Shown piece after piece: positions 1,360-27,028 of a stretch of 64,000 nt of DNA (position 1 is its first letter; each line of letters opens with the position of its first letter). Source of the DNA: an uncultured Actinomycetes bacterium (GTDB taxonomy: Bacteria > Actinomycetota > Thermoleophilia > UBA2241); NCBI GenBank assembly GCA_963725665.1, contig CAVRZA010000006.1, forward strand, positions 320,001 to 384,000, given 5' to 3'. The position numbers were made by a program, and so were the translations under genes. The notes below the pieces were generated by a model. The model saw nothing but the letters and a program-made list of their open reading frames with translations, had not been told where the DNA came from and did no database searches.

Positions 1360-2655
1360 TTACGCCGGAGCCGCGCGCACGCGCATGTCGCCCGTCTGAG
1401 ACAGTGAGCCCAGATAGCTCACCAGTGGCAGCGGCCGGGGTTCGCGTGCCGGCTGCGCGTCGAGCATGACATCTCCCCCGATGACCTCGACGGGCTCCCA
1501 TTCGGCTACCAGTTCCTCCTCGTTGCCCACGCTCACGATGGCGTCGGCCTCAGGTACGTGGTCGGTGAGACCGGCGTTGGTCTCGGCTACCAGCATGACC
1601 GTGCGGATTCCGAGACGCTCACAGGCGCGGCAGGTCAGCATCGTATCGGTGTGCGAATTGCCCGACGAGAACGTCGTGAGGATCGCCCCTTCGGCGCCCA
1701 GCTGCTGGCCCAGCTTGGCCGCCATCATGGCCATACGTTCCTTCTCGAAGGCCGAGGGCAGGTAGGCCAGCGTGAGCACCACTCCGCGAAGATCGACATA
1801 GGATCCGTGCGCCCGCAGAAGCCTCAGAAGGAGATCGCTGCGCTGGTAGAAGTGCGTTGGGTTGCGTACGCCTGCCCAATCGTACTGGCCGGCCGTCAGC
1901 GCCCCATCGAGGACCTCCCGGGGATCTAGCACAGTCGCGACAGCGCCCTTGAGCGAAGCTCCATAGAAGTAGGTGTCCACCAGGGGGCCCTCGGCCGCGA
2001 CCTGAAGGATCACGCACACCCGGGGCATCTCGCCCGACACGTCACCCCAGTGCAGCACCTCGACATCGCCGGGAACCACCTCCGCCGGCACCTCCGCCGC
2101 CAGGGCTCGCGCGAACGCAAGCGTCACCCGTCGCAAGGAGCGGTCGACGTCTGCTAGCTGCACTGTCGGATCACAGCGGAACGAGAGGACGACGTTCTGC
2201 GTCGCCGACCAGTGCGAGAAGGCCGCCCCCGGGCCGCCCATGTCGACGATAGAGTCTCCGTCGGGAACGACGTCGAGGGCTGTGACATCGTGACTTGCCC
2301 GCAAATCGGCCGTTGCGAGCACCGCCACCCCCGAGAGACGCCGAGTCGGTCCGATGCCGACGGGCTTCAACGTTCCCAGAGCGCCGGGAAACGTGGCCTC
2401 TGGCTCCGCGGTCTTGAGCGCAGGCTCCACTGCATCGAGCACGTTGAGCAGACGGACTGGGTCTCCTGGTCGAACGACGCTCAGACGCACCTCGAGGATC
2501 CCGGGCAGGCCCAACCAGAGCGGCTCGAGCGAGGCTTCGCTCACCGTCAGACGGCCGTCTTCCCAGGCCGTGCTTGACCCCTGGACGAGCCCTCCCACGG
2601 CGTGCGAGCTTATCTCGAGAACGGAAAGTCGGTCTTGAGTCACGGTCTGTCGCAT
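1360..2655 (-). CDS. Glycine/sarcosine/betaine reductase component B alpha/beta-type subunit (GrdE/GrdI-like)
   Basis: Motifs DAVEP, FPG, IVDMGGPGAAFSHWSATQNVV, P.EVLDGA, GAILT..GNSHTDTML.C; ends 9 nt upstream of grdB. Confidence 0.85.
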   Translation of the reverse strand: MRQTVTQDRLSVLEISSHAVGGLVQGSSTAWEDGRLTVSEASLEPLWLGLPGILEVRLSVVRPGDPVRLLNVLDAVEPALKTAEPEATFPGALGTLKPVGIGPTRRLSGVAVLATADLRASHDVTALDVVPDGDSIVDMGGPGAAFSHWSATQNVVLSFRCDPTVQLADVDRSLRRVTLAFARALAAEVPAEVVPGDVEVLHWGDVSGEMPRVCVILQVAAEGPLVDTYFYGASLKGAVATVLDPREVLDGALTAGQYDWAGVRNPTHFYQRSDLLLRLLRAHGSYVDLRGVVLTLAYLPSAFEKERMAMMAAKLGQQLGAEGAILTTFSSGNSHTDTMLTCRACERLGIRTVMLVAETNAGLTDHVPEADAIVSVGNEEELVAEWEPVEVIGGDVMLDAQPAREPRPLPLVSYLGSLSQTGDMRVRAAPA

Positions 2656-17059: not shown

Positions 17060-18220
17060 ATGGCGATGGAGAAGCGAAGTAGATTTCTCTACCTATCTGA
17101 GCCGGACATGATCGAGGCCGGAGTGCTCAATGCAGCGCAGTGCATCGACGTCTGTGAGGATGTCTTTAGGCTCCTCGCCACCGGCGACTACCTGATGGGT
17201 GGCCCTAACCACAATAGCCACGGCCTGGGCATCGACTTCCCCAAGGAGTCGCCGTTCCCCAGCATGCCCTTGGCGGGACCCGACCGCCGCTTCGTTGCGA
17301 TGCCGGCGTACCTGGGCGGGAAGTACGACGTCTGCGGCAACAAGTGGTATGGCTCCAACCCCGCCAACACTTCGCGAGGTCTGCCGCGCTCGGTTCTGAC
17401 CGTGATGCTAAACGACAAGGACACCGGCGAGCCCCTGTGTCTCATGTCAGCGAACCTCCTGAGTTCTGCTCGAACAGGCGCCATCCCCGCTGTAGCCTCC
17501 CGCTTTCTCGCGCGCCAGGACTCCGAGATCTGCGCTGTGATCGGATGCGGCCCGATCAACAAGGCATGCTTCCGGGCCGTTCTCTCGCAGATGCCAAGCC
17601 TCAAGAAAGCTATCTGCCACGACCTCACCGAGGCGACTGCCCAGGCCTTCGCGGATTGGTCAAGGACGAAGTTCGGGATAGACAGTGTCGTTTCTACCTC
17701 CCTTGAGGATGCCCTCGGGGACGCCGATGTCGTGACCGTCGCGGCATCGCGGCTGAAGACGCTCTACGTGCAGGACGCATGGTTCAAGAGTGGGGCAACC
17801 GTGCTACTCACTGGCCCGATGAAGGCGGAGGACTCCTTCTGGATCAACAGCACCATCGTCTACGACAACATCCACCTACAGAAGGCCTACGTTCTGGAAG
17901 CACTTGCCGCCCCCGACAAACTCAAGTACTACGACGGCGTCATTGGCGGACCGCTCTACAAGTTGATCGACGACGGGAAGATGCCGTCTCTGGCTGACTC
18001 CACTGACCTGGGAAATGTCATCCTTGGCAATAAGAGTCGTCGTCAGAGCGACGAGGAACGTATCGTCTTTGTTGCCTGTGGAATGGCCGTCTTCGACATT
18101 GCCTGGGGATTTGAACTCTACCAGTCTGCCCTCAAGCAAGGACTCGGCCAGTGGCTTGTGCTTTGGGATGAGCCCTACCGCGAAGAAGCATCTGCGTCGG
18201 CCATCCCGGCTGGACTCTGA
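17060..18220 (+). CDS. Ornithine cyclodeaminase/mu-crystallin family protein (TynB-like clade)
   Basis: FLYLSEPDMI, MPAYLGG, KWYGSN, RTGAIP, GMAVFDIAW; AGGAG RBS. Confidence 0.85.
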   Translation: MAMEKRSRFLYLSEPDMIEAGVLNAAQCIDVCEDVFRLLATGDYLMGGPNHNSHGLGIDFPKESPFPSMPLAGPDRRFVAMPAYLGGKYDVCGNKWYGSNPANTSRGLPRSVLTVMLNDKDTGEPLCLMSANLLSSARTGAIPAVASRFLARQDSEICAVIGCGPINKACFRAVLSQMPSLKKAICHDLTEATAQAFADWSRTKFGIDSVVSTSLEDALGDADVVTVAASRLKTLYVQDAWFKSGATVLLTGPMKAEDSFWINSTIVYDNIHLQKAYVLEALAAPDKLKYYDGVIGGPLYKLIDDGKMPSLADSTDLGNVILGNKSRRQSDEERIVFVACGMAVFDIAWGFELYQSALKQGLGQWLVLWDEPYREEASASAIPAGL

Positions 18221-18492
18221 CGGGTCGGGGACTAGAAGGTTCTATTCTCCCAGCATCGACGTAGGCGTCCGTCTAGTGGTTCGAGGTGGGGGACAGTCTT
18301 CATAGCTGCGGCTGGAGAGACAGGCGTCATGGCCGTCCGTTCGAGGTCGTCTCTTCCACCCTTGGGGACCAGAGCGGTCGGGTGCATCATCGGCTCGAGC
18401 AAGGCGCAGCGCCCCGCGAAACGGCCGCATGTGGATGCCGATGCCAACGCGGCGAAGGAGCTTGTCGGCCGGAAATGGGAGTGTGGTAGGGG

Positions 18493-19896
18493 ATGCTGAA
18501 GATACGCAACTTCGAAGCACTGATCTCGCACGGAGAGACACATTCCAGGAGGGTGGTGCTGGAGATTGCCGACAAGACGCTGCGACGGCTGGACGCATAC
18601 AGCAGGATAGGGAGCATCGCGCACCTAGACGGGTCTTCCCTGCACATCGGGACACGGACTTGGGACCTCTCGAAAAAGAGGCATGTGTACCTCGTCGGCG
18701 CCGGAAAGGCATGCAACGCGATGGCTGCCGCGCTCGACGAGATCCTCGGCGACAATCTCAGCAAGGGGATCGTGATCGTCAAGGTCGCGGAGGAGGCAGA
18801 CGTCTTCAGGCACACAGACGTCTACGTGGGTGGGCACCCACTGCCCAACCGGACGGGCTACGAGGCCTCTCTGAAGATCCTGGAACTCGCGGACCAAGCG
18901 GGGCCCGAGGACCTATTCATTGCAGTGATCAGCGGGGGGAGCTCAGCTCTGATGAGCTGTCCGGTCCAGGGAATCTCAACACAGGACGAGATAGACGCAA
19001 CAGATGTTCTGCTGAAGTCCGGGGCCGGCATCTATGAGATCAACGCGATTCGACGCCACATATCGCAGACGAACGGCGGCATGCTGGCTAAGAGAATCCA
19101 AGCTTCCGGTGCTGAGCTGATCGGCTTTGGTATCTCCGACGCTGTCGGGAACCCGCCGACGGGCGACATCGGAATCCCGTGCCGGAACTACGCAAGCACG
19201 CCGATCGGTCCCGATAGGACTACCATTGCTGAGGCCCGGCGCGTCATCGCCGACTATGACTTGGCTGATCGGCTGCCCCCCAACGTAGTCCGGTACCTCA
19301 TGGAGGCAGGTGAGGCTTGCGAGACGCCCAAGGCATTCCCGGACAACACCTATTATCTGCTTAACACCGTGCCCGATTCGTGCATCTACGCAAGAGAGGT
19401 GGCGGAGGAGATGGGGATCCCTGCCTACATCCTGACTTCCTTCCTCGAGGGTGAAGGCAAGGATGCCGGCACCCTCTTCGCCTCGCTTGCCCGTGAGGTA
19501 CAGGCCTACGGAAACCCCTTCCCCGCACCGTGCGTTATCCTCAGCAGCGGGGAGACGACGACGAGGATCCTGGAGAACTCCGCTGTTGAAGGGCACGGGG
19601 GACCATCGCAAGAGCTCACCGCGAGCTTCGCGATCAGCGCCACGAAGGCTCCCGGGGTGTGCATGTTGTCGGTGGACTCGGAGGGAACTGACGGGACCAC
19701 AACCGTGGCCGGCGGGCTCACTGACTCAAGCAGCTACGAGGCGGCCATGAAGAATGGTGTAAGCCTGCATGCCGCGTTGCGGGGTCACTTCTGCTACGAA
19801 GCATTGGAGGCTATCGGCGACACCGTGATCACTGGCAACACGGGAACGAATCTCTGCGATTTCAACATTCTCTACGTCCCGACTCTTGAGAACTAG
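18493..19896 (+). CDS. Glycerate 2-kinase-like protein (MOFRL family)
   Basis: GAGKA, GGHPLP, ISGGSSAL, SGETT, DSEGTDG, TGTNLCD. Confidence 0.88.
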   Translation: MLKIRNFEALISHGETHSRRVVLEIADKTLRRLDAYSRIGSIAHLDGSSLHIGTRTWDLSKKRHVYLVGAGKACNAMAAALDEILGDNLSKGIVIVKVAEEADVFRHTDVYVGGHPLPNRTGYEASLKILELADQAGPEDLFIAVISGGSSALMSCPVQGISTQDEIDATDVLLKSGAGIYEINAIRRHISQTNGGMLAKRIQASGAELIGFGISDAVGNPPTGDIGIPCRNYASTPIGPDRTTIAEARRVIADYDLADRLPPNVVRYLMEAGEACETPKAFPDNTYYLLNTVPDSCIYAREVAEEMGIPAYILTSFLEGEGKDAGTLFASLAREVQAYGNPFPAPCVILSSGETTTRILENSAVEGHGGPSQELTASFAISATKAPGVCMLSVDSEGTDGTTTVAGGLTDSSSYEAAMKNGVSLHAALRGHFCYEALEAIGDTVITGNTGTNLCDFNILYVPTLEN

Positions 19897-19947
19897 CCAC
19901 AGGCAGGCTTCAAGGCCAGGCCGCTCCAGGGAGGAGCAGGGTCCCAC

Positions 19948-21216
19948 ATGAAGATCGAATCTCTGCGGGCACGGCAGCTTATCGACTGCATGTGCCGGCC
20001 AATGGTCGAGGTCGAGGTCGTGACGGAAGGAGGATTCGTCGGCAGAGGCGCAGCGCCTACCGGCCAGTCCGTGGGGATGCACGAGGCCTTCGTGCTGCGG
20101 GATAACGATCCTGACGTGTACAACGGGCTCAGCGTTCACCGGGCGGTAGAGAACGTCCGGCACGTAATCGCGCCGGCCCTGATCGGGATGCCGGTCGACG
20201 ACCAACGCGCCCTCGACGACCTGATGATCGCCCTCGATGGGACAGAGAACAAGAGCAACCTGGGCGGTAACGCCATCTACTCGACCTCGATCGCCTGCCT
20301 CAGGGCTGCTGCTGCCGCCGCCGGTCTGCCCCTCTATCAATATCTCGGGCGGGAGCGTCTCAAGACGGTTCCAGTACCAAGTTTCAACATGGTGAACGGG
20401 GGACGATACCGCGACTTCGTACAACCGTTCAATGAGTTCATCGTCATGCCCTACAAGGCAGAGTCCATCTTTGAAGCGGTGGAGATGGCGGTCGATCTCT
20501 TCGACGTGATGTCTGGCGTTCTAGAGGAGCACCTCGGATCGTCTCCGAAGGTGGCGCGCTCCTATGGCTACGTTGCGCCGTCTGAGGATCCTGAAGTCGT
20601 CCTTTCGTTGATGCAGGAGGCGATCGATCGCTGCGGGTACGCGGACAAGATGGCCTTCGCCCTCGACTGCGCCTCGAGTGAGATGTACGACAGCGCGACC
20701 GCGACCTACTACCTCAAGGGGGGGCGGGTTGGCACTGACGAGCTGATTTCCTACGTCAAGGACCTGACCGAGACGTTCAACTTGGTGTTCGTGGAGGACC
20801 TCCTGGACGAGAACGACTGGGACGGCTATCCACGTGCCGTGAGGCAGATTCCCCGCACCATCATTCTTGGAGACGACCTCATCGCTACGAACCTGGCGCG
20901 TCTTCGGAAGGCGACAGCCATGGGGGCGATCGAGGGATTTGTCTTCAAGCCCAATCAGATCGGGACGATCTCGGAGGCCTTGGAGACCTATGAATACGGG
21001 GTCGCACACAACCTCGTCGCAGTCCCCTCTGGGCGCTCGGGCGGTGTTGTCGATGACGTGGTCATGGACCTATCGGTCGGACTCCAGGTTGCATTTCAGA
21101 AGAACGGCGCGCCACGGTCGGGAGAGCGGATCGAGAAGCTCAACTTCCTCATGCGTGCTGCTGACTCAATTCCTGACTGCTCCCTGGCAGATGTAGTCAG
21201 CATCGTGAAGTTCTAG
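19948..21216 (+). CDS. Enolase-like protein with a non-canonical active site
   Basis: KSNLGGNA, LDCASSE, VEDL, GDDL, KPNQIGT, RSG; several catalytic positions are altered. Confidence 0.85.
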   Translation: MKIESLRARQLIDCMCRPMVEVEVVTEGGFVGRGAAPTGQSVGMHEAFVLRDNDPDVYNGLSVHRAVENVRHVIAPALIGMPVDDQRALDDLMIALDGTENKSNLGGNAIYSTSIACLRAAAAAAGLPLYQYLGRERLKTVPVPSFNMVNGGRYRDFVQPFNEFIVMPYKAESIFEAVEMAVDLFDVMSGVLEEHLGSSPKVARSYGYVAPSEDPEVVLSLMQEAIDRCGYADKMAFALDCASSEMYDSATATYYLKGGRVGTDELISYVKDLTETFNLVFVEDLLDENDWDGYPRAVRQIPRTIILGDDLIATNLARLRKATAMGAIEGFVFKPNQIGTISEALETYEYGVAHNLVAVPSGRSGGVVDDVVMDLSVGLQVAFQKNGAPRSGERIEKLNFLMRAADSIPDCSLADVVSIVKF

Positions 21217-21502
21217 TGCCGCGACTAGATCTCGTGCCCCCCGCGCAGCGTACCCACCCTGTGGCGCAAACGCCTGGCTTGGCTTCTCCGACAGGGGAGC
21301 CGTCCTCGCCGATCGGGTGGTGGCCGCCGCCATCCTGAACTGCCTCTTGCACCACGCCACCGCGGTGAACACCAAGGGCAAGAGCTTCCGCATGGGGCGG
21401 CTTCAAGATCAAATCGACAAGGAGAGAGGCGGCGCTGCTGTGGTCCAAGGGAGCTCTGCACTCTTCATGAGCGGCTCACTGCACTTCTCGTGATCGCCTG
21501 CA
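21217..21502 (+). mobile_element. IS21-family remnant (IstB C-terminal fragment and right-end repeats)
   Basis: From 21281: GFSDRGAVLADRVVAAAILNCLLHHATAVNTKGKSFRM, resembling IstB AILDRLLHH..KG.SYR; repeated CTGCACT..TGA.CG units at 21456-21497; TG...CA ends (left end tentative). Confidence 0.7.
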
Positions 21503-21584: not shown

Positions 21585-21821
21585 TGCGCGCTCTTCACCG
21601 ACTCGGATGGTATCGACGGCGCGACCGACGCGGCGGGGGGCCTGGTCGACGACCTCACCGTGCGCGAGGCGGGCGAGCGCGGCGTCGATATCGGCGCGGC
21701 CCTGGCCGCGCACACCTCGAAAGACGCGCTCGCCCGCCTCGCCGATCTCGTCCTCACCGGCCCCACCGGCACCAACGTCAACGATATGAAGATCCTGCTG
21801 AAGGCCGCGGCAGCGCGTTGA
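21585..21821 (+). pseudogene. 3' remnant of a glycerate kinase (MOFRL domain)
   Basis: TDSDGIDGATDAAGGLVD...TGPTGTNVND; 5' part absent. Confidence 0.8.
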
Positions 21822-21863
21822 TGCCCGGGATCGGGCAGGCCGACAGCTTCGCCGAGCCGCGGA

Positions 21864-22268
21864 TCAGCCGAATCCGAACGGTCCCCACAGGTAGAAGACG
21901 ACCGCGTTCCCGACGCCCGCGGCCAGCGTCATCAGCAGCGCCACGCCTGTGATCCACGCCGATGAAGAGTGCGGCCGTCCGCGCCGGCCCGCAGCGAGCG
22001 CAAGAAGCACCAGCGCCACCGCGTCGGCGGCGCCGACGACGATGTAGATCGCCGGCGTCCAGAGGGTCCGCACCGCCTCATCCGGGTGAGCGAGGAACGC
22101 CCACAGCACGAACGCGAGCGAGGCCATGAGGATGACCAGCGCAGCCACGATGGAACCTCGGCGTGTGCGGCCGACGCGCAGGTTGTGCACGAACAGTTCG
22201 AGCGTCAGCAGCGGCCCCAGCCCGATGAGAAGCACAAGCGCGATGACGAGCACTGCGTTGCGTGGCAC
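21864..22268 (-). CDS. Hypothetical membrane protein (about 4 TM)
   Basis: Four hydrophobic stretches; GTG start after a G-rich RBS. Confidence 0.6.
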   Translation of the reverse strand: MPRNAVLVIALVLLIGLGPLLTLELFVHNLRVGRTRRGSIVAALVILMASLAFVLWAFLAHPDEAVRTLWTPAIYIVVGAADAVALVLLALAAGRRGRPHSSSAWITGVALLMTLAAGVGNAVVFYLWGPFGFG

Positions 22269-22468
22269 GGTACCCCCGTCGGTAGCCTGCGGTCGTCGGA
22301 CCCGCGAGCACTGACGCAATACTACAGGAGGCCGGCAGGGGCGACGCGAGGTTCCCCGGCCCGCGGAACGTTGGCGCCTCATGGCCCCAAGCGCCGTCCC
22401 TCGTCGCCACATGACGCAGACCGCTTATGCAGCGATGGGCACGACGTCGCCGCGCGCGCAGTGAAGAG

Positions 22469-22501
22469 GTGGCGGGCAGTGCGGGAGTTACACCCGCCTA
22501 C
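22469..22501 (-). repeat. Displaced 3' end of tRNA-Pyl (att site)
   Basis: 32 of 33 bp identical to 23701-23733. Confidence 0.9.
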
Positions 22502-22605
22502 GTGATCCAGAATCCTCCTAAACTCATAAGAGATACGGTGAGCGGGTCTTTTCGAGCCTAGAAGCGCAGATTAGGGGAGGCAAACCGGCCTGCGCTGAGC
22601 CTACT

Positions 22606-22628
22606 GTCAAACACCTCGTCAAACACCT
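22606..22628. repeat. Tandem 11-bp repeat, putative integrase arm-type sites
   Basis: GTCAAACACCT-C-GTCAAACACCT about 105 bp inside the distal att repeat. Confidence 0.55.
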
Positions 22629-23701
22629 AGACGCGCTACGCGCGGCCAGTCCGTCCCTCCGCAACGGGCAGCGGCGCTTCATCAGGGCAAGCGGCTATGC
22701 CCCGTCGAGTCCCTTAGGGGCGGCGGGAGGCTCGGCCGGGCGGCCTTGCTCGTCAGCGGGAGGTCGTCAGACGACTGGACGCTCACCTGTGTTGTCGCGG
22801 CGGGGCGTCTATGCAGTTGGAGGCGGCGTCGTCGTGACTGGCAGTCACCTGCGATTCTGCGCCCTTAGGACCAGCAGGCCTATGCCAAGCATGACCACGA
22901 GGGCGACCAGAATGATGAGGGGTCCTATGATTCCGCCTCCTATGTCCGTCGTCTTGGTCAGCTTAGCAGACGGTGGGTCATGACCGGATTGGCCCCCTAC
23001 CCGCCCGCGCCCTGGCCCCTGCGCTCACCCGTGCCGTCGTGGCGGTCGCCTGCTGGAGCCGGAGGCGGGCCGATGGTGGTGGCTATCTTCGCCGCTTCCT
23101 ATCGAGCGCGACCACGGCAGCGATGCCGGTACACAGGAGAGCCGAGAAACCAGTCGAGCCAGCCGGAGAAGACCACAGACGCCCACAGGGACAGCGCCAC
23201 GCACGGGTCCCCCTAGAGCTGCCGCCGGAGCCACGCGGGGTCAGTCTCTTTCCTGAGTAGCGACCTCGGCCCACTTGGCGTCGGAGATGACGCCCGAGGT
23301 GTCGAGTTCGCGTCGGTCCAGTTCACGCTGTTCGTCCATGTCACCTCCCTCGCGCGATGAAGCCGAGCGCGCCGCCCGCAGCGAAGGCGAGGACGCCGAA
23401 GAACGGGAGGGCGAAGATGGTCATGAGGCTATTCCACTGGGTCGTCGTTCGATGGTCATGGGGCTATTCCTCTAGGTCGCGGTTGGCATCGTCGGGCGGC
23501 GGCACGATGGGGAGCTGGATGCGGAGCCTCACGCCCACCGGGGCTACGGGACAGCGGCACCGAGGCAATCGGCGTCGGCCTGAAGATGAAGAGCTACGAG
23601 GGTTGGCCGAAGACAGCGCCGGACGAGTGGTGTCTTGAGTTCGTCGAGCAGGCGACCTGACAAAGGTAGGAGGGCGGCTGTCTATCCGCGGAGTAAGAAA
23701 G

Positions 23702-23774
23702 TGGCGGGGAGTGCGGGAGTTACACCCGCCTACATGGATTTAGAGTCCATGCTGATCTTTCCGATCGACCCCCC
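23702..23774 (-). tRNA. pylT: tRNA-Pyl (anticodon CUA)
   Basis: GGGGGGT C GATC GGAAA GATC AG CATGGA CTCTAAA TCCATG TAG GCGGG TGTAACT CCCGC ACTCCCC G CCA: one nt between acceptor and D stems, 5-nt D loop, 6-bp anticodon stem, 3-nt variable loop, no TTC in the T loop, G73; adjacent to pylD. Confidence 0.96.
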
Positions 23775-23784
23775 GCGGTGCTCC

Positions 23785-23790
23785 ATTGTA
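23785..23790 (-). promoter_or_regulatory. -10-like box (TACAAT) upstream of pylT
   Basis: TACAAT 10 nt before tRNA G1; no clear -35. Confidence 0.4.
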
Positions 23791-23828
23791 CGCCTCAAAG
23801 CAGTGACGGCCGCCATGGCGCCCCTCTG

Positions 23829-24638
23829 CTACCGCAACCCCTCGAGTGCCATGGTCACAACGCCCAGGGCGAGCGGCTCGTGTATGTGGCGCTCGCCGAG
23901 AGCGGCGGCCGTTTCCAGACCCGCCGCCGGCGGGATCCCGGGGGCCGATACGATGCTGTCCGGAGTCACCCACTCTGCGGGGATGAGGTCGCCCACGGGG
24001 GCGGCGTCGAGGACCAGGTGACTGCGGGCGAGACCCTCGGCGAGTTCTACGGGTTGCAGACCGAGCTCCCGCGACACTCGCGCGAGCCGCGCGCGGTCGG
24101 GGTCGGCGGCGAGGGCGGTGGCGCCAAGCGCCACCGCCCTCGCCGCCGCGGTGCTGCCGACCGGACCGAGGCCGAGAATCAGAACCTCCTTGCCTCGCAG
24201 GCCCCCCGCTGCGGCGTCGAGCGCGGCGAGGAAGGCGCGCCCCGTCGCCTCACCGTTGTCGGAGCACACGCCGGTCGTGATATTGAGTGCGATGAAGCGC
24301 TCCTCGTCGGCCGCGAACACAAGCCGGGCGCCAGCCTCGGCGGCCTCGGCGAGGCCGGAAATGTCCGGATGCGCGGTCACCCAGGCATCGCAGCCCACGT
24401 GTCGGCAGATGCTGGCCACCGACTCAGAGAACCCTGAGATGAAGCCCTGGCCAGCGGAGATCGGCAGAGCGACCACCGGGGCATCCCTGAGGCGTTCGTC
24501 GGCCTCGTCCGACCGCAGATCCAGCGCGTGCGCGGCGATGGCCGCCAGACCGAGCCCGGTGGCACGCGCGAGCCGCTCATCGAGCCCAGCGACGCCGTCG
24601 GGCAGCCAGCGCACGTCGTCCTCCGTCAACCTCGTCAT
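23829..24638 (-). CDS. pylD: 3-methylornithyl-N6-L-lysine dehydrogenase PylD
   Basis: MTRLT, PISAGQGFISGF, DISGLAEA, ADEERF, DNGEATG, GLGPVG, PGIP, HEPLALGV; follows pylB and pylC. Confidence 0.93.
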   Translation of the reverse strand: MTRLTEDDVRWLPDGVAGLDERLARATGLGLAAIAAHALDLRSDEADERLRDAPVVALPISAGQGFISGFSESVASICRHVGCDAWVTAHPDISGLAEAAEAGARLVFAADEERFIALNITTGVCSDNGEATGRAFLAALDAAAGGLRGKEVLILGLGPVGSTAAARAVALGATALAADPDRARLARVSRELGLQPVELAEGLARSHLVLDAAPVGDLIPAEWVTPDSIVSAPGIPPAAGLETAAALGERHIHEPLALGVVTMALEGLR

Positions 24639-24696
24639 CCGACGCCCCCCGCTCCTTTCGCGGTCCCTGCTCGAGCCGTGGACGATCCCCTGCGGG

Positions 24697-25914
24697 TCAT
24701 GGCTGTCCACCGCTCGCCACAGTCGCTGACCGAACCCCATGGGGGTTGACCTCAGGAAGCAGCCGCAACCCGCACTCCTCCGCGATGCGCGCCTCGACGT
24801 CGTGGGTGCGGCGGCGCGCCTCTGCGACATCGCCGCCGCGCACGATCAGGGTCGCCACCCACTCCCGCTCGCCCCCGTCGAAGTCCGTCATCGCCTCGTC
24901 GGCGCCGAAGAAGCCTTTGACAAGCTGCAAAGGCGGCGCGGAACCCATGACGTGCTCCCCCACCACCTGCAGCGCGTCTTCGCGGGCGCGCACGTGCTCG
25001 TAGACGACCCCGCGCAGTACGCGCCGGTTCGGTTCCGGTACGGCGCCGGTCGCGAAGGCCGCGACCAGCAGTTCGAGGAGATTGACGTCGTAAGCGTGCA
25101 GCACCGCGGCCGGCGTCTGGCTGGGAAGCCGGGCGTCGATCTCGATGACCTTCGCCTCACGTCCGGCGATCATCACCTCGACGTCCATGATGCCGCTCAG
25201 CCGCAGCTTCGCCGCAAGCCGTTCGCCGCTGTCGGCGAGCGACGCCAGCGCCTCCTCGACGACGTCCGCGTAGAACGCGTCCCCGGCAACCGGAGCCGTG
25301 ACACGCTTGCAGTCGAAGGCGTCGTCGAACTCGAGACCCGTGACCAGACACGGCACCGACCTGCCCTCGAGCGCCAGCACCTCGATGGAGAGCGAGGGGC
25401 CGGCCACGAACTCCTCGACGACGACCTCGTGGCCGGCCCGCTCGAGGTCGAGCCGGGCCTCCTCGAGCTCGCGCTCACTTGCCGCCACGCGCACTCCCTC
25501 GCTGCCGCTGGCGGCGCTCGGCTTGACCACCGCCGGCAGGCCGCACACCGGCCAGGGCAAAGGGGCCGGCACACCTAGCTCGCGCATGAGGTCGTTGGAG
25601 GCCGCCTTCGACGAGGTCACGCGATACGCCGACAGATCGAAAAGCAGCGGTACGCCGAGGTCTGGAGCGAGCCGCGCCAGCCTCTCGAGCGCCGCGTCGT
25701 CCTCACAGGCCGGCAAGACGGCGTCGCAGGAAGCCAGGAGCTCACGCGCCAGCGCCTCGTCACGCGTGACGTCGAGGAGGTGGCTCTCGGTGGCGAGGCC
25801 GGTGGCGGGACGTCCCTCGCGACGGTCGATCAGGACGGTCTCAAAGCCGGCCTTCAGGCCGAGGTAGCAGGCCTCCGTGCCCTGAAGCTTGCCACCGACT
25901 ACTCCGAGACGCAT
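24697..25914 (-). CDS. pylC: 3-methylornithine--L-lysine ligase PylC (ATP-grasp)
   Basis: VGGKLQGTEACYL, TSSK, VKPS..SGSEG, SIEV, DCKRV, EIDARLPSQTP, GEHVM. Confidence 0.93.
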   Translation of the reverse strand: MRLGVVGGKLQGTEACYLGLKAGFETVLIDRREGRPATGLATESHLLDVTRDEALARELLASCDAVLPACEDDAALERLARLAPDLGVPLLFDLSAYRVTSSKAASNDLMRELGVPAPLPWPVCGLPAVVKPSAASGSEGVRVAASERELEEARLDLERAGHEVVVEEFVAGPSLSIEVLALEGRSVPCLVTGLEFDDAFDCKRVTAPVAGDAFYADVVEEALASLADSGERLAAKLRLSGIMDVEVMIAGREAKVIEIDARLPSQTPAAVLHAYDVNLLELLVAAFATGAVPEPNRRVLRGVVYEHVRAREDALQVVGEHVMGSAPPLQLVKGFFGADEAMTDFDGGEREWVATLIVRGGDVAEARRRTHDVEARIAEECGLRLLPEVNPHGVRSATVASGGQP

Positions 25915-25936
25915 GGACCTGCCTTTCGCGGCCGCC

Positions 25937-27028
25937 TCAGACCGCGATCGAGGCCATCTGGCGCGCTTTGGTGGCGTCCACCCACTCGCCGTACTCGGCG
26001 GCGTCGGCGGCCTCGAGCCCTAGAGCCGGCAGGTGCTCGGTGACGCCGGCGACGCTACGCAGACCGGCGTCGATGTCGAGCTCCGACTGCGAGACGCCGC
26101 ACAGGCCCGACGAGGGCGGCACGAGCGAGGTGACGACGCTGGCGCCGGCCTCGAGGCGCGCCTCGAGGCCGGCGATGCCCTCGACGTCGAGCGAGGCCGG
26201 GATAAGGCGTTCGGGCATCACGAGGCGCATGCATGCGATCACGAGCTGCTCCTCGAGCACACCGACGCTCGTGAGCCCCGCGAGCGGCGTGCCCGGCTGG
26301 GGCACGAAGCTCATGACCCGCACCTGGGCGAGCGGCTGGCGGCGCATCTCGAGGATCGAGTTGGCGCGGTCGGCGAAGGTCTCACCGACGCCGATGAGGA
26401 TGCCGTCTTCGACGAGGAGGCCCGAGCGCGCCGCCGCGCTGCGCGCGGCGGCGCGCTCGTCGTAATCCTGCCGTAGCCGAAGGCGCGCGTAGAGGTCGCG
26501 CGTGTGCGTCTCCTGGTAGCATGCGTACCAATCGGCGCCGACGGCCGCCAGCTGGGCGAGGACGTCGTCGGGGACGACGCCCGGAGAGACCATGACCGGC
26601 AGGCCGACCTCGCGCCTCACCGTCGCCACGAGGTCGACGAGAGCGCTGAAATCGCGCGCATCGTGGATCAGGGGATCCTCGCCCATGGTGAGGTCGAGGA
26701 GGTGCACACCCGAGTCCGCCAGATCGCGGCATACGGCGACCACCTCAGCGACCGACTTGCGGTAGCGCGGGCTCTCGGTGTTGTCGCGGCGGTAGAAGCA
26801 GAACGTGCACCAGTTGCGGCAGTACGTCGAGAAGTAGACGAAGCCGTAGAGGAAGACGCGGTGGCCGAAGTTCTCCTCACGCGCCGCGCGCGCGGCCGAG
26901 AACACCGCCTCGGCATCCTCACGCGAATCGATGCCCAGCAGACGCTCGAGCTCGCGAGGTGCGAGATCCTGGCCGCAACGAGCGCGCTCGAGGATGTGAA
27001 CGATCTCGGGGGAGGCCGACCGGGTCAT
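25937..27028 (-). CDS. pylB: 3-methylornithine synthase PylB (radical SAM)
   Basis: YGFVYFSTYCRNWCTFC (CxxxCxxC), DLTMGEDP, MVSPG, YQET, IPASLDVEG, TSLVPP..L.GV. Confidence 0.95.
   Translation of the reverse strand: MTRSASPEIVHILERARCGQDLAPRELERLLGIDSREDAEAVFSAARAAREENFGHRVFLYGFVYFSTYCRNWCTFCFYRRDNTESPRYRKSVAEVVAVCRDLADSGVHLLDLTMGEDPLIHDARDFSALVDLVATVRREVGLPVMVSPGVVPDDVLAQLAAVGADWYACYQETHTRDLYARLRLRQDYDERAAARSAAARSGLLVEDGILIGVGETFADRANSILEMRRQPLAQVRVMSFVPQPGTPLAGLTSVGVLEEQLVIACMRLVMPERLIPASLDVEGIAGLEARLEAGASVVTSLVPPSSGLCGVSQSELDIDAGLRSVAGVTEHLPALGLEAADAAEYGEWVDATKARQMASIAV

Follow-up and report, generated by a model that had tools for sequence, protein, structure and literature searches.

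A probable decayed attL/attR scar of a tyrosine-integrase element at the tRNA-Pyl gene of an uncultured Thermoleophilia bacterium

The DNA analysed here, a 64-kb stretch referred to below as the window, comes from an actinobacterium of soil or sediment and contains the gene for tRNA-Pyl (pylT) and, downstream of it, a displaced partial copy of its 3' end. We interpret this arrangement, with a probability of roughly 0.78, as an attL/attR pair that a tyrosine-integrase element left at pylT and that has since decayed to a scar. The partial copy forms a direct repeat with pylT, the repeated sequence occurs nowhere else in the organism's own genome, arm repeats accompany the core, and relatives carry integrase-bearing elements at the same site. 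Since no integrase was found between the repeats or elsewhere in the window, the structure is read as a decayed scar rather than as a live element.

The only tRNA gene called by ARAGORN in the 64 kb was that for tRNA-Pyl (anticodon CTA), and the intact gene at 23702-23774 on the minus strand, confirmed by alignment with pylT of 14 relatives, is the proposed attL. An earlier note on this DNA had suggested that standard tRNA scanners often miss this gene, which did not hold for ARAGORN and did hold for an Rfam scan of positions 21800-24000, in which nothing was returned at E values up to 1, pylT included. Upstream of pylT, and likewise on the minus strand, Pfam identified pylD (23829-24830), pylC (24697-25914) and pylB (25937-27028), and this pylB-pylC-pylD block (23829-27028) is the host side of the proposed attL. 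A gene for the PylS catalytic domain is located on the same contig, 47 kb from pylT. On the opposite side, just past the distal copy, is a 182-aa membrane-like ORF (21864-22412, minus strand) with host-like GC3, which presumably represents the host flank (B'). Beyond the distal copy and this membrane ORF, GC content was 0.56-0.63 at 17400-21400 as opposed to 0.68 genome-wide, and this segment, which carries ornithine cyclodeaminase-like, DUF4147/MOFRL and enolase genes, may be acquired DNA.

The repeated sequence is a 33-mer at 23701-23733 that extends from the last base of the anticodon stem through variable loop, T arm and acceptor 3' strand to CCA plus one base. Its distal copy, the proposed attR core, was located at 22469-22501 (minus strand), at a distance of 1.2 kb past the end of pylT. 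The two copies have the same orientation and are identical at 32 of 33 bases, the single mismatch being a C to G change in the acceptor 3' strand. This recurrence, pointed out in the earlier note, was borne out by shuffles and by a genome search. Thus, none of 100 dinucleotide-preserving shuffles of the window gave any match to the 33-mer at up to 3 mismatches, and only the two copies were present in the organism's own genome (3.73 Mb, 12 contigs) even when up to 6 substitutions were allowed. A chance or low-complexity match, favored by the GC-rich background and nothing more, is vanishingly improbable in the face of these shuffles and of the register of the copy with the tRNA 3' end. The pair has the form of the direct repeats of tRNA attL/attR pairs, i.e., an intact tRNA gene is followed by a second, like-oriented copy of its 3' part.

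Likeness between pylT and the distal copy faded beyond the 33-mer. A repeat finder extended the pair to 50 nt at 86%, and this result together with alignments defined an extended distal copy (22455-22515, minus strand), which adds a diverged anticodon-arm part with 4 changes and 1 deletion (22502-22515) and 14 nt of trailer-like sequence (22455-22468). With one gap, the likeness is carried into the anticodon arm (GGATTCTGGAT-CACG versus GGACTCTAAATCCATG). Past the 33-mer, 9 of 15 bases agree, for which the expectation is 0.257 per site (P about 0.005); in view of this match and of the mostly pyrimidine-rich trailers of pylT genes, that part of the repeat could be host sequence on both sides. 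Between the distal copy and the 5' half of the tRNA (acceptor 5' strand and D arm), alignments revealed no likeness. The copy has the sharp inner limit of tRNA att sites, being near-perfect from the variable loop on and diverged in the anticodon arm before it. As to the trailers themselves, the first 10-15 bases after the pylT CCA in the printed loci of relatives were mostly pyrimidine-rich (TCTTC-like), and no such trailer was present in contig L033, where the integrase side abuts the tRNA.

The limits of the att core were evident from partial pylT copies in relatives. All five of these copies (in L191, G011, L168, L237 and L236) extend over 46-47 nt from the anticodon stem to CCA and, when aligned, start at the last bases of the 5' strand of the anticodon stem. 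The same limit was indicated by two Logan contigs, which cease to resemble the window pylT at 23747. The 3' 47 nt of pylT (23702-23748) are the att core as it occurs in relatives. Hence the 33-nt repeat, taken in the earlier note as the att unit, describes the window and falls short of the repeat in relatives, which runs from the anticodon arm to CCA; provided that divergence of its first 14 nt is allowed for, the distal copy in the window fits the 46-47-nt frame. Each partial copy bears the T-arm variant of its own host.

These limits bear on a different origin of the repeat, namely that the distal copy is a decayed second tRNA, produced when a segment with pylT was duplicated in tandem or when an element with a whole pylT recombined by homology, the 5' half being lost afterwards. 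Something of this kind is seen in the metagenome contig L232 (6013-9903). Besides the intact gene this contig has, 3.8 kb further downstream, a second pylT of full length whose anticodon loop is mutated (CCCAAAAGCC in place of CTCTAAACCC), and the lower-GC insert between the two encodes a 984-aa FG-GAP repeat protein and no integrase. The weak likeness that continues into the anticodon arm in the window, like the agreement at 9 of 15 bases past the 33-mer, could be taken in the same sense. However, identity at 32 of 33 bases beside a 5' half devoid of any likeness is incompatible with uniform decay, the sequence past the distal copy is unlike the interval, where a tandem unit would need likeness, and the start position shared by the five partial copies in relatives indicates a site-specific limit. 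Origin of the window copy by tandem duplication is therefore unlikely, as is its origin from a decayed second tRNA of either kind, and the scenario named in the earlier note as the one that would overturn its reading has a counterpart in the family, in the decayed full-length pylT of L232, and not in this window.

Tandem repeats in the arms of the cores also argue against a decayed second tRNA. The tandem GTCAAACACCT pair that had been noticed about 105 bp inside the distal copy proved to be exact, with its members at 22606-22616 and 22618-22628 on the plus strand (period 12), and is proposed to represent arm-type integrase-binding sites of the P arm. Tandem exact 8-mers spaced 9-14 nt apart were present in 7 of 10 arms as opposed to 11.6% of background windows (20,000 random 260-nt windows of the organism's own genome). 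In P arms these repeats precede the core by 103-124 nt, and in P' arms they follow CCA at 61-84 nt. The arms of L033 and L168 have the tandem motif GGTGCTCC in common, and similar motifs were noted in G011 and G022 (CGCCAACA), L237 (CTGCCAAC), L191 (TGCAAACA) and the window (GTCAAACACC), that of the window being on the opposite strand relative to the motifs of G011, L237 and L236. Thus, of the two window arms, the P arm contains an exact pair of the type found at tRNA att sites and the attL arm contains no tandem repeat.

Integrase-bearing elements at pylT were identified in several relatives, which supports the attL/attR reading. A degenerate pattern of the pylT 3' end matched one contig in IMG/VR, L033. 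This contig has a full pylT and, convergent with it, the gene for a 389-aa tyrosine integrase (PF00589, E 3.1e-28), which ends at a distance of 14 bp from the pylT 3' end. Behind this integrase are genes for a large terminase, a Mu-type portal (Portal_Mu), a Mu-like prophage I protein and capsid E; searches with the integrase returned itself alone among viral contigs and one 29%-identical match among genome contigs. A metagenome contig, L168, whose name bears the same dataset prefix as L033, carries a run of replication genes (helicase, exonuclease, Sak4-like annealing protein, SSB-like protein and primase) followed by a 47-nt pylT copy that is 100% identical to the 3' part of the L033 pylT, and the flank past this copy is unlike the integrase side of L033. 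The two contigs, which none of the contigs analysed joins, are read as the probable attL and attR ends of one prophage.

A second such element was found in genome G022, where a 454-aa integrase (phrog_1, E 3.8e-61) is encoded about 110 bp from pylT. This protein gave weak N-terminal matches to arm-binding and SAM-like domains in addition to the catalytic domain and was 27% identical to Paenibacillus phage integrases across 97% of its length. A Toprim/AAA (primase/helicase-like) protein and a large terminase (Terminase_6N) are encoded nearby, and the element adjoining pylT is, judged by these genes, prophage-like. Thus, both L033 with L168 and G022 combine phage structural, packaging and replication genes with an integrase. 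A search for the attR of the G022 element revealed no shared 12-mer in 40 kb downstream, of which about 3 kb reads N; an N stretch in the island next to pylT is located at about 177500-180500 of G022:C8 (L022 5000-8000).

The third case, L191, has a pylT that is 98.7% identical to that of the window. Downstream of it come, in this contig, a 105-aa fragment of an integrase C terminus (PF00589), a 288-aa ORF of unrelated type and more integrase-like fragments, then a partial pylT copy (30/33) at 1.86 kb and a host Germane/Gmad2 gene; Germane/Gmad2-type genes also follow pylT in G096 and L232. L191, a near relative, offers the best match to the window, with a 1.8-kb remnant in which a broken integrase lies between pylT and the partial copy. 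An integrase between the repeats, absent in the window, thus has its counterpart at pylT of L033 and G022 and, in broken form, of L191. With these three loci and the copy in L168, the search for integrase-linked pylT 3' copies that the earlier note had called for succeeded, and its interpretation of the layout is largely supported. A look for amber-interrupted genes within the elements, which it had also proposed, revealed none, by an author-defined GC3 criterion, in L033 (14.2 kb), L168 (7.9 kb) or 10.2 kb of G022.

The frequency of such elements was assessed among relatives consisting of uncultured Thermoleophilia and other Actinomycetota MAGs as well as metagenome contigs. A pylT match was present in 70 of 89 genomes of the window's family, and the stretches downstream of pylT were compared for 63 relatives' loci, with 0.2 to 19 kb covered in each. 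With 12 integrase sequences as queries, an integrase adjoining pylT was detected in one of these 63 loci, that of G022, and integrases adjoined pylT in 2 of the 120 metagenome loci listed among the at least 120 that matched a degenerate pylT 3'-end pattern. None of the 63 loci contained a second pylT copy at up to 6 mismatches in 30, and their flanks differed from those of the window. The pylD-pylT order was kept in 14 of 14 relatives' loci; of 16 window proteins compared with 16 relatives' loci by tblastn, only pylD and a small Cys-rich gene were matched, and no syntenic downstream genes were found. Because genes downstream of pylT are not conserved, no relative with an empty site was found. 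A comparison of pylT with 50,697 GenBank phage records gave no match.

Other copies of pylT were noted in the course of this survey. The partial copy in G011, which is 46 nt long, is on a different contig, where it adjoins an IS66 transposase and an integrase is found 2.7 kb away; this integrase belongs to a family with multiple copies in the window's genome, so its link to pylT is weak. Two further partial copies are those of L236 and L237. An apparent second copy in G096 was rejected, since it consisted of two contig ends overlapping inside pylT, with ordinary genes downstream. In the metagenome contig L244, a pylT-like gene (about 1690-1763, minus strand) has the anticodon loop CTCTGAA (CTG for CTA) and a broken D stem, and was not called as tRNA-Pyl by ARAGORN.

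The interval between the repeats in the window (22502-23701), which appears to be the remnant of the element, contains no integrase and no ORF of more than 95 aa. It has no second copy elsewhere in the organism's own genome, no integrase remnant was detected in it even at E values up to 10, and its short ORFs had no match in PHROG or Pfam. The 64-kb window as a whole gave no match to PF00589. According to the earlier note the interval held only broken membrane-protein fragments; short hydrophobic ORFs, for which no relatives were found, are indeed present, and in addition there is a truncated gene for a small Cys-rich protein (23502-23661, plus strand) that matches residues 17-67 of a 69-aa relative. 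Only the 3' part of this gene is present in the window, the start codon and the N-terminal Cys pair being gone. The intact 69-aa relative is encoded in G012, where a mobile context is not evident. The gene is patchy in distribution (3 of 89 family genomes), and G012 and G075 share it as a 221-nt piece (82%; L284 1507-1727 and L285 1478-1686) between unlike flanks. Among the hydrophobic ORFs, one of 27 aa (23341-23424, minus strand) has a codon-position GC that fits coding, and a 35-nt tandem duplication (23416-23484), with copies 85% alike, repeats the region of its start.

Short contigs of related populations, from public runs, hinted at changes within the interval (likeness threshold 88; the runs contained at most 0.12 of the sampled words). 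In these contigs, all of low cover, 144 nt at 22975-23120, 95 nt at 23351-23447 and 711 nt at 22987-23699 were skipped or replaced. The irregular sizes of these differences look like those of an interval undergoing loss. Contigs of four public runs showed no joint of the two cores, the cover of 22386-22790 being nil.

Like a CIME, the interval is bounded on either side by proposed att sites and lacks recombination genes, and one might suppose that it is still a mobilisable, non-autonomous unit, the 1.2 kb being excised, or serving as a landing pad, through an integrase acting in trans. Both cores and the tandem sites of the P arm are nearly intact, and the organism's own genome gave 18 PF00589 matches, the nearest of which is 72 kb from the interval. 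One of the integrases in this genome (C6:270427) is 82% identical over 179 aa to that located 2.7 kb from the G011 partial copy, but its family is a multi-copy one that is not tied to pylT. Further points against a mobilisable unit are the diverged anticodon-arm part of the distal copy, the attL arm with no tandem sites and the differences of 95, 144 and 711 nt, which look like decay, and altogether we consider this explanation quite improbable. Outside the window, two other features of integrase-family sequence were noted in the same genome, in which TAG is decoded as Pyl. A 329-aa integrase-family frame with one in-frame TAG is present at G000:C1:513312-513857, and more than 20 pieces of 90-440 nt in G000:C1:473000-550000, each 75-88% identical to the 3'-terminal part of the G011:C261 integrase gene, look like an array of integrase-gene remnants.

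From the evidence for a decayed scar we infer that integrase action gave rise to the repeat in the window, and the steps of entry and decay would be as follows. What entered the 3' part of pylT would have been a temperate phage or a small integrative element, equipped with a tyrosine integrase of the lambda type. In its attP, a copy of the tRNA 3' part would have started in the anticodon arm or T arm and included CCA and a few trailer bases, so that a working pylT (attL, 23774-23702) would have been rebuilt by recombination and the former 3' end shifted downstream (attR, 22501-22469). Deletions that came afterwards would have taken the integrase and nearly all cargo, the remainder being a 1.2-kb scar with the tandem sites of the P arm (22606-22628), a truncated accessory gene and a few short ORFs. 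The loci described above are best accounted for as a decay series that leads from a whole prophage (L033 with L168; G022) by way of L191, with its broken integrase, to the bare scar in the window. Counted against this interpretation are the lack of an integrase or recognisable remnant of one in the window, the failure to find an empty site among relatives, the length of the strict repeat in the window, which is 33 nt and not 46-47 nt, the reversed orientation of its arm motif, the attL arm with no tandem repeat, the likeness past the 33-mer that could stem from host sequence, the intact Cys-rich gene of G012 with no evident mobile setting, the rarity of integrases at pylT and the occurrence of whole-tRNA duplication in the same family (L232).

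No description of pylT as an integration or attachment site was found in full-text searches of openly accessible articles, and in portions of two genome papers (PMC5011839, PMC4153887), pylT comes up in a context apart from that of the integrases or prophages. Since relatives carry whole prophages at the same spot, pylT, although a rare tRNA gene, is an ordinary kind of phage landing site, and it is an addition to the list of att sites that was not noted before in the literature searched. The gene is special as a target, since all Pyl decoding relies on its product, a suppressor tRNA encoded in single copy. An element landing there must restore it exactly, and the partial copies do match the T-arm variant of their own host. 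In practical terms, the 46-47-nt core and the candidate arm motifs provide handles for prophages of uncultured Pyl-decoding actinobacteria, and in annotation a stray pylT 3' fragment should be taken for an island border rather than a second tRNA gene.

A broader and decidedly doubtful proposal is that Pyl-decoding Thermoleophilia have temperate phages and small elements specialised on pylT, each of which supplies the 3' 47 nt with the T-arm variant of its host genus, so that the tRNA-Pyl of lysogens is part phage. If this were true, the tRNA-Pyl trailer and 3' processing context would be replaced in lysogens, lysogeny could be coupled to the level of amber read-through, and the phages could be confined to Pyl-using hosts.

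Prophages and islands commonly integrate by means of tyrosine integrases into the 3' part of genes for tRNA, tmRNA and tRNA-Sec (selC), and the sublocation classes of such sites within tRNA genes were reportedly reviewed by Williams in 2002. The window conforms to this pattern in the intact tRNA gene at attL, the displaced same-orientation 3' copy at attR, the identity block from the anticodon arm to the 3' end, the tandem arm-type repeats and, in intact relatives, the integrase beside the tRNA gene. It differs in that the target is pylT, the single amber-suppressor tRNA gene of a Pyl-decoding actinobacterium, and in that the scar has neither integrase nor cargo. The CIMEs of streptococci are att-flanked remnants of integrative elements that lack recombination genes, and the interval in the window resembles them in being a short unit between attL and attR with no integrase. 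In contrast with streptococcal CIMEs, neither mobilisation nor accretion with another element is indicated for the scar, and its origin appears to be a phage or small element rather than an ICE. As for the integrases, the three linked to pylT are only 29-43% identical to one another, so that more than one lineage is represented. Likeness to lambda-type heterobivalent integrases is seen in the G022 protein, with its weak arm-binding and SAM-like matches in addition to a catalytic domain, and in the tandem repeats 60-125 nt from the core, which are putative sites of integrase binding.
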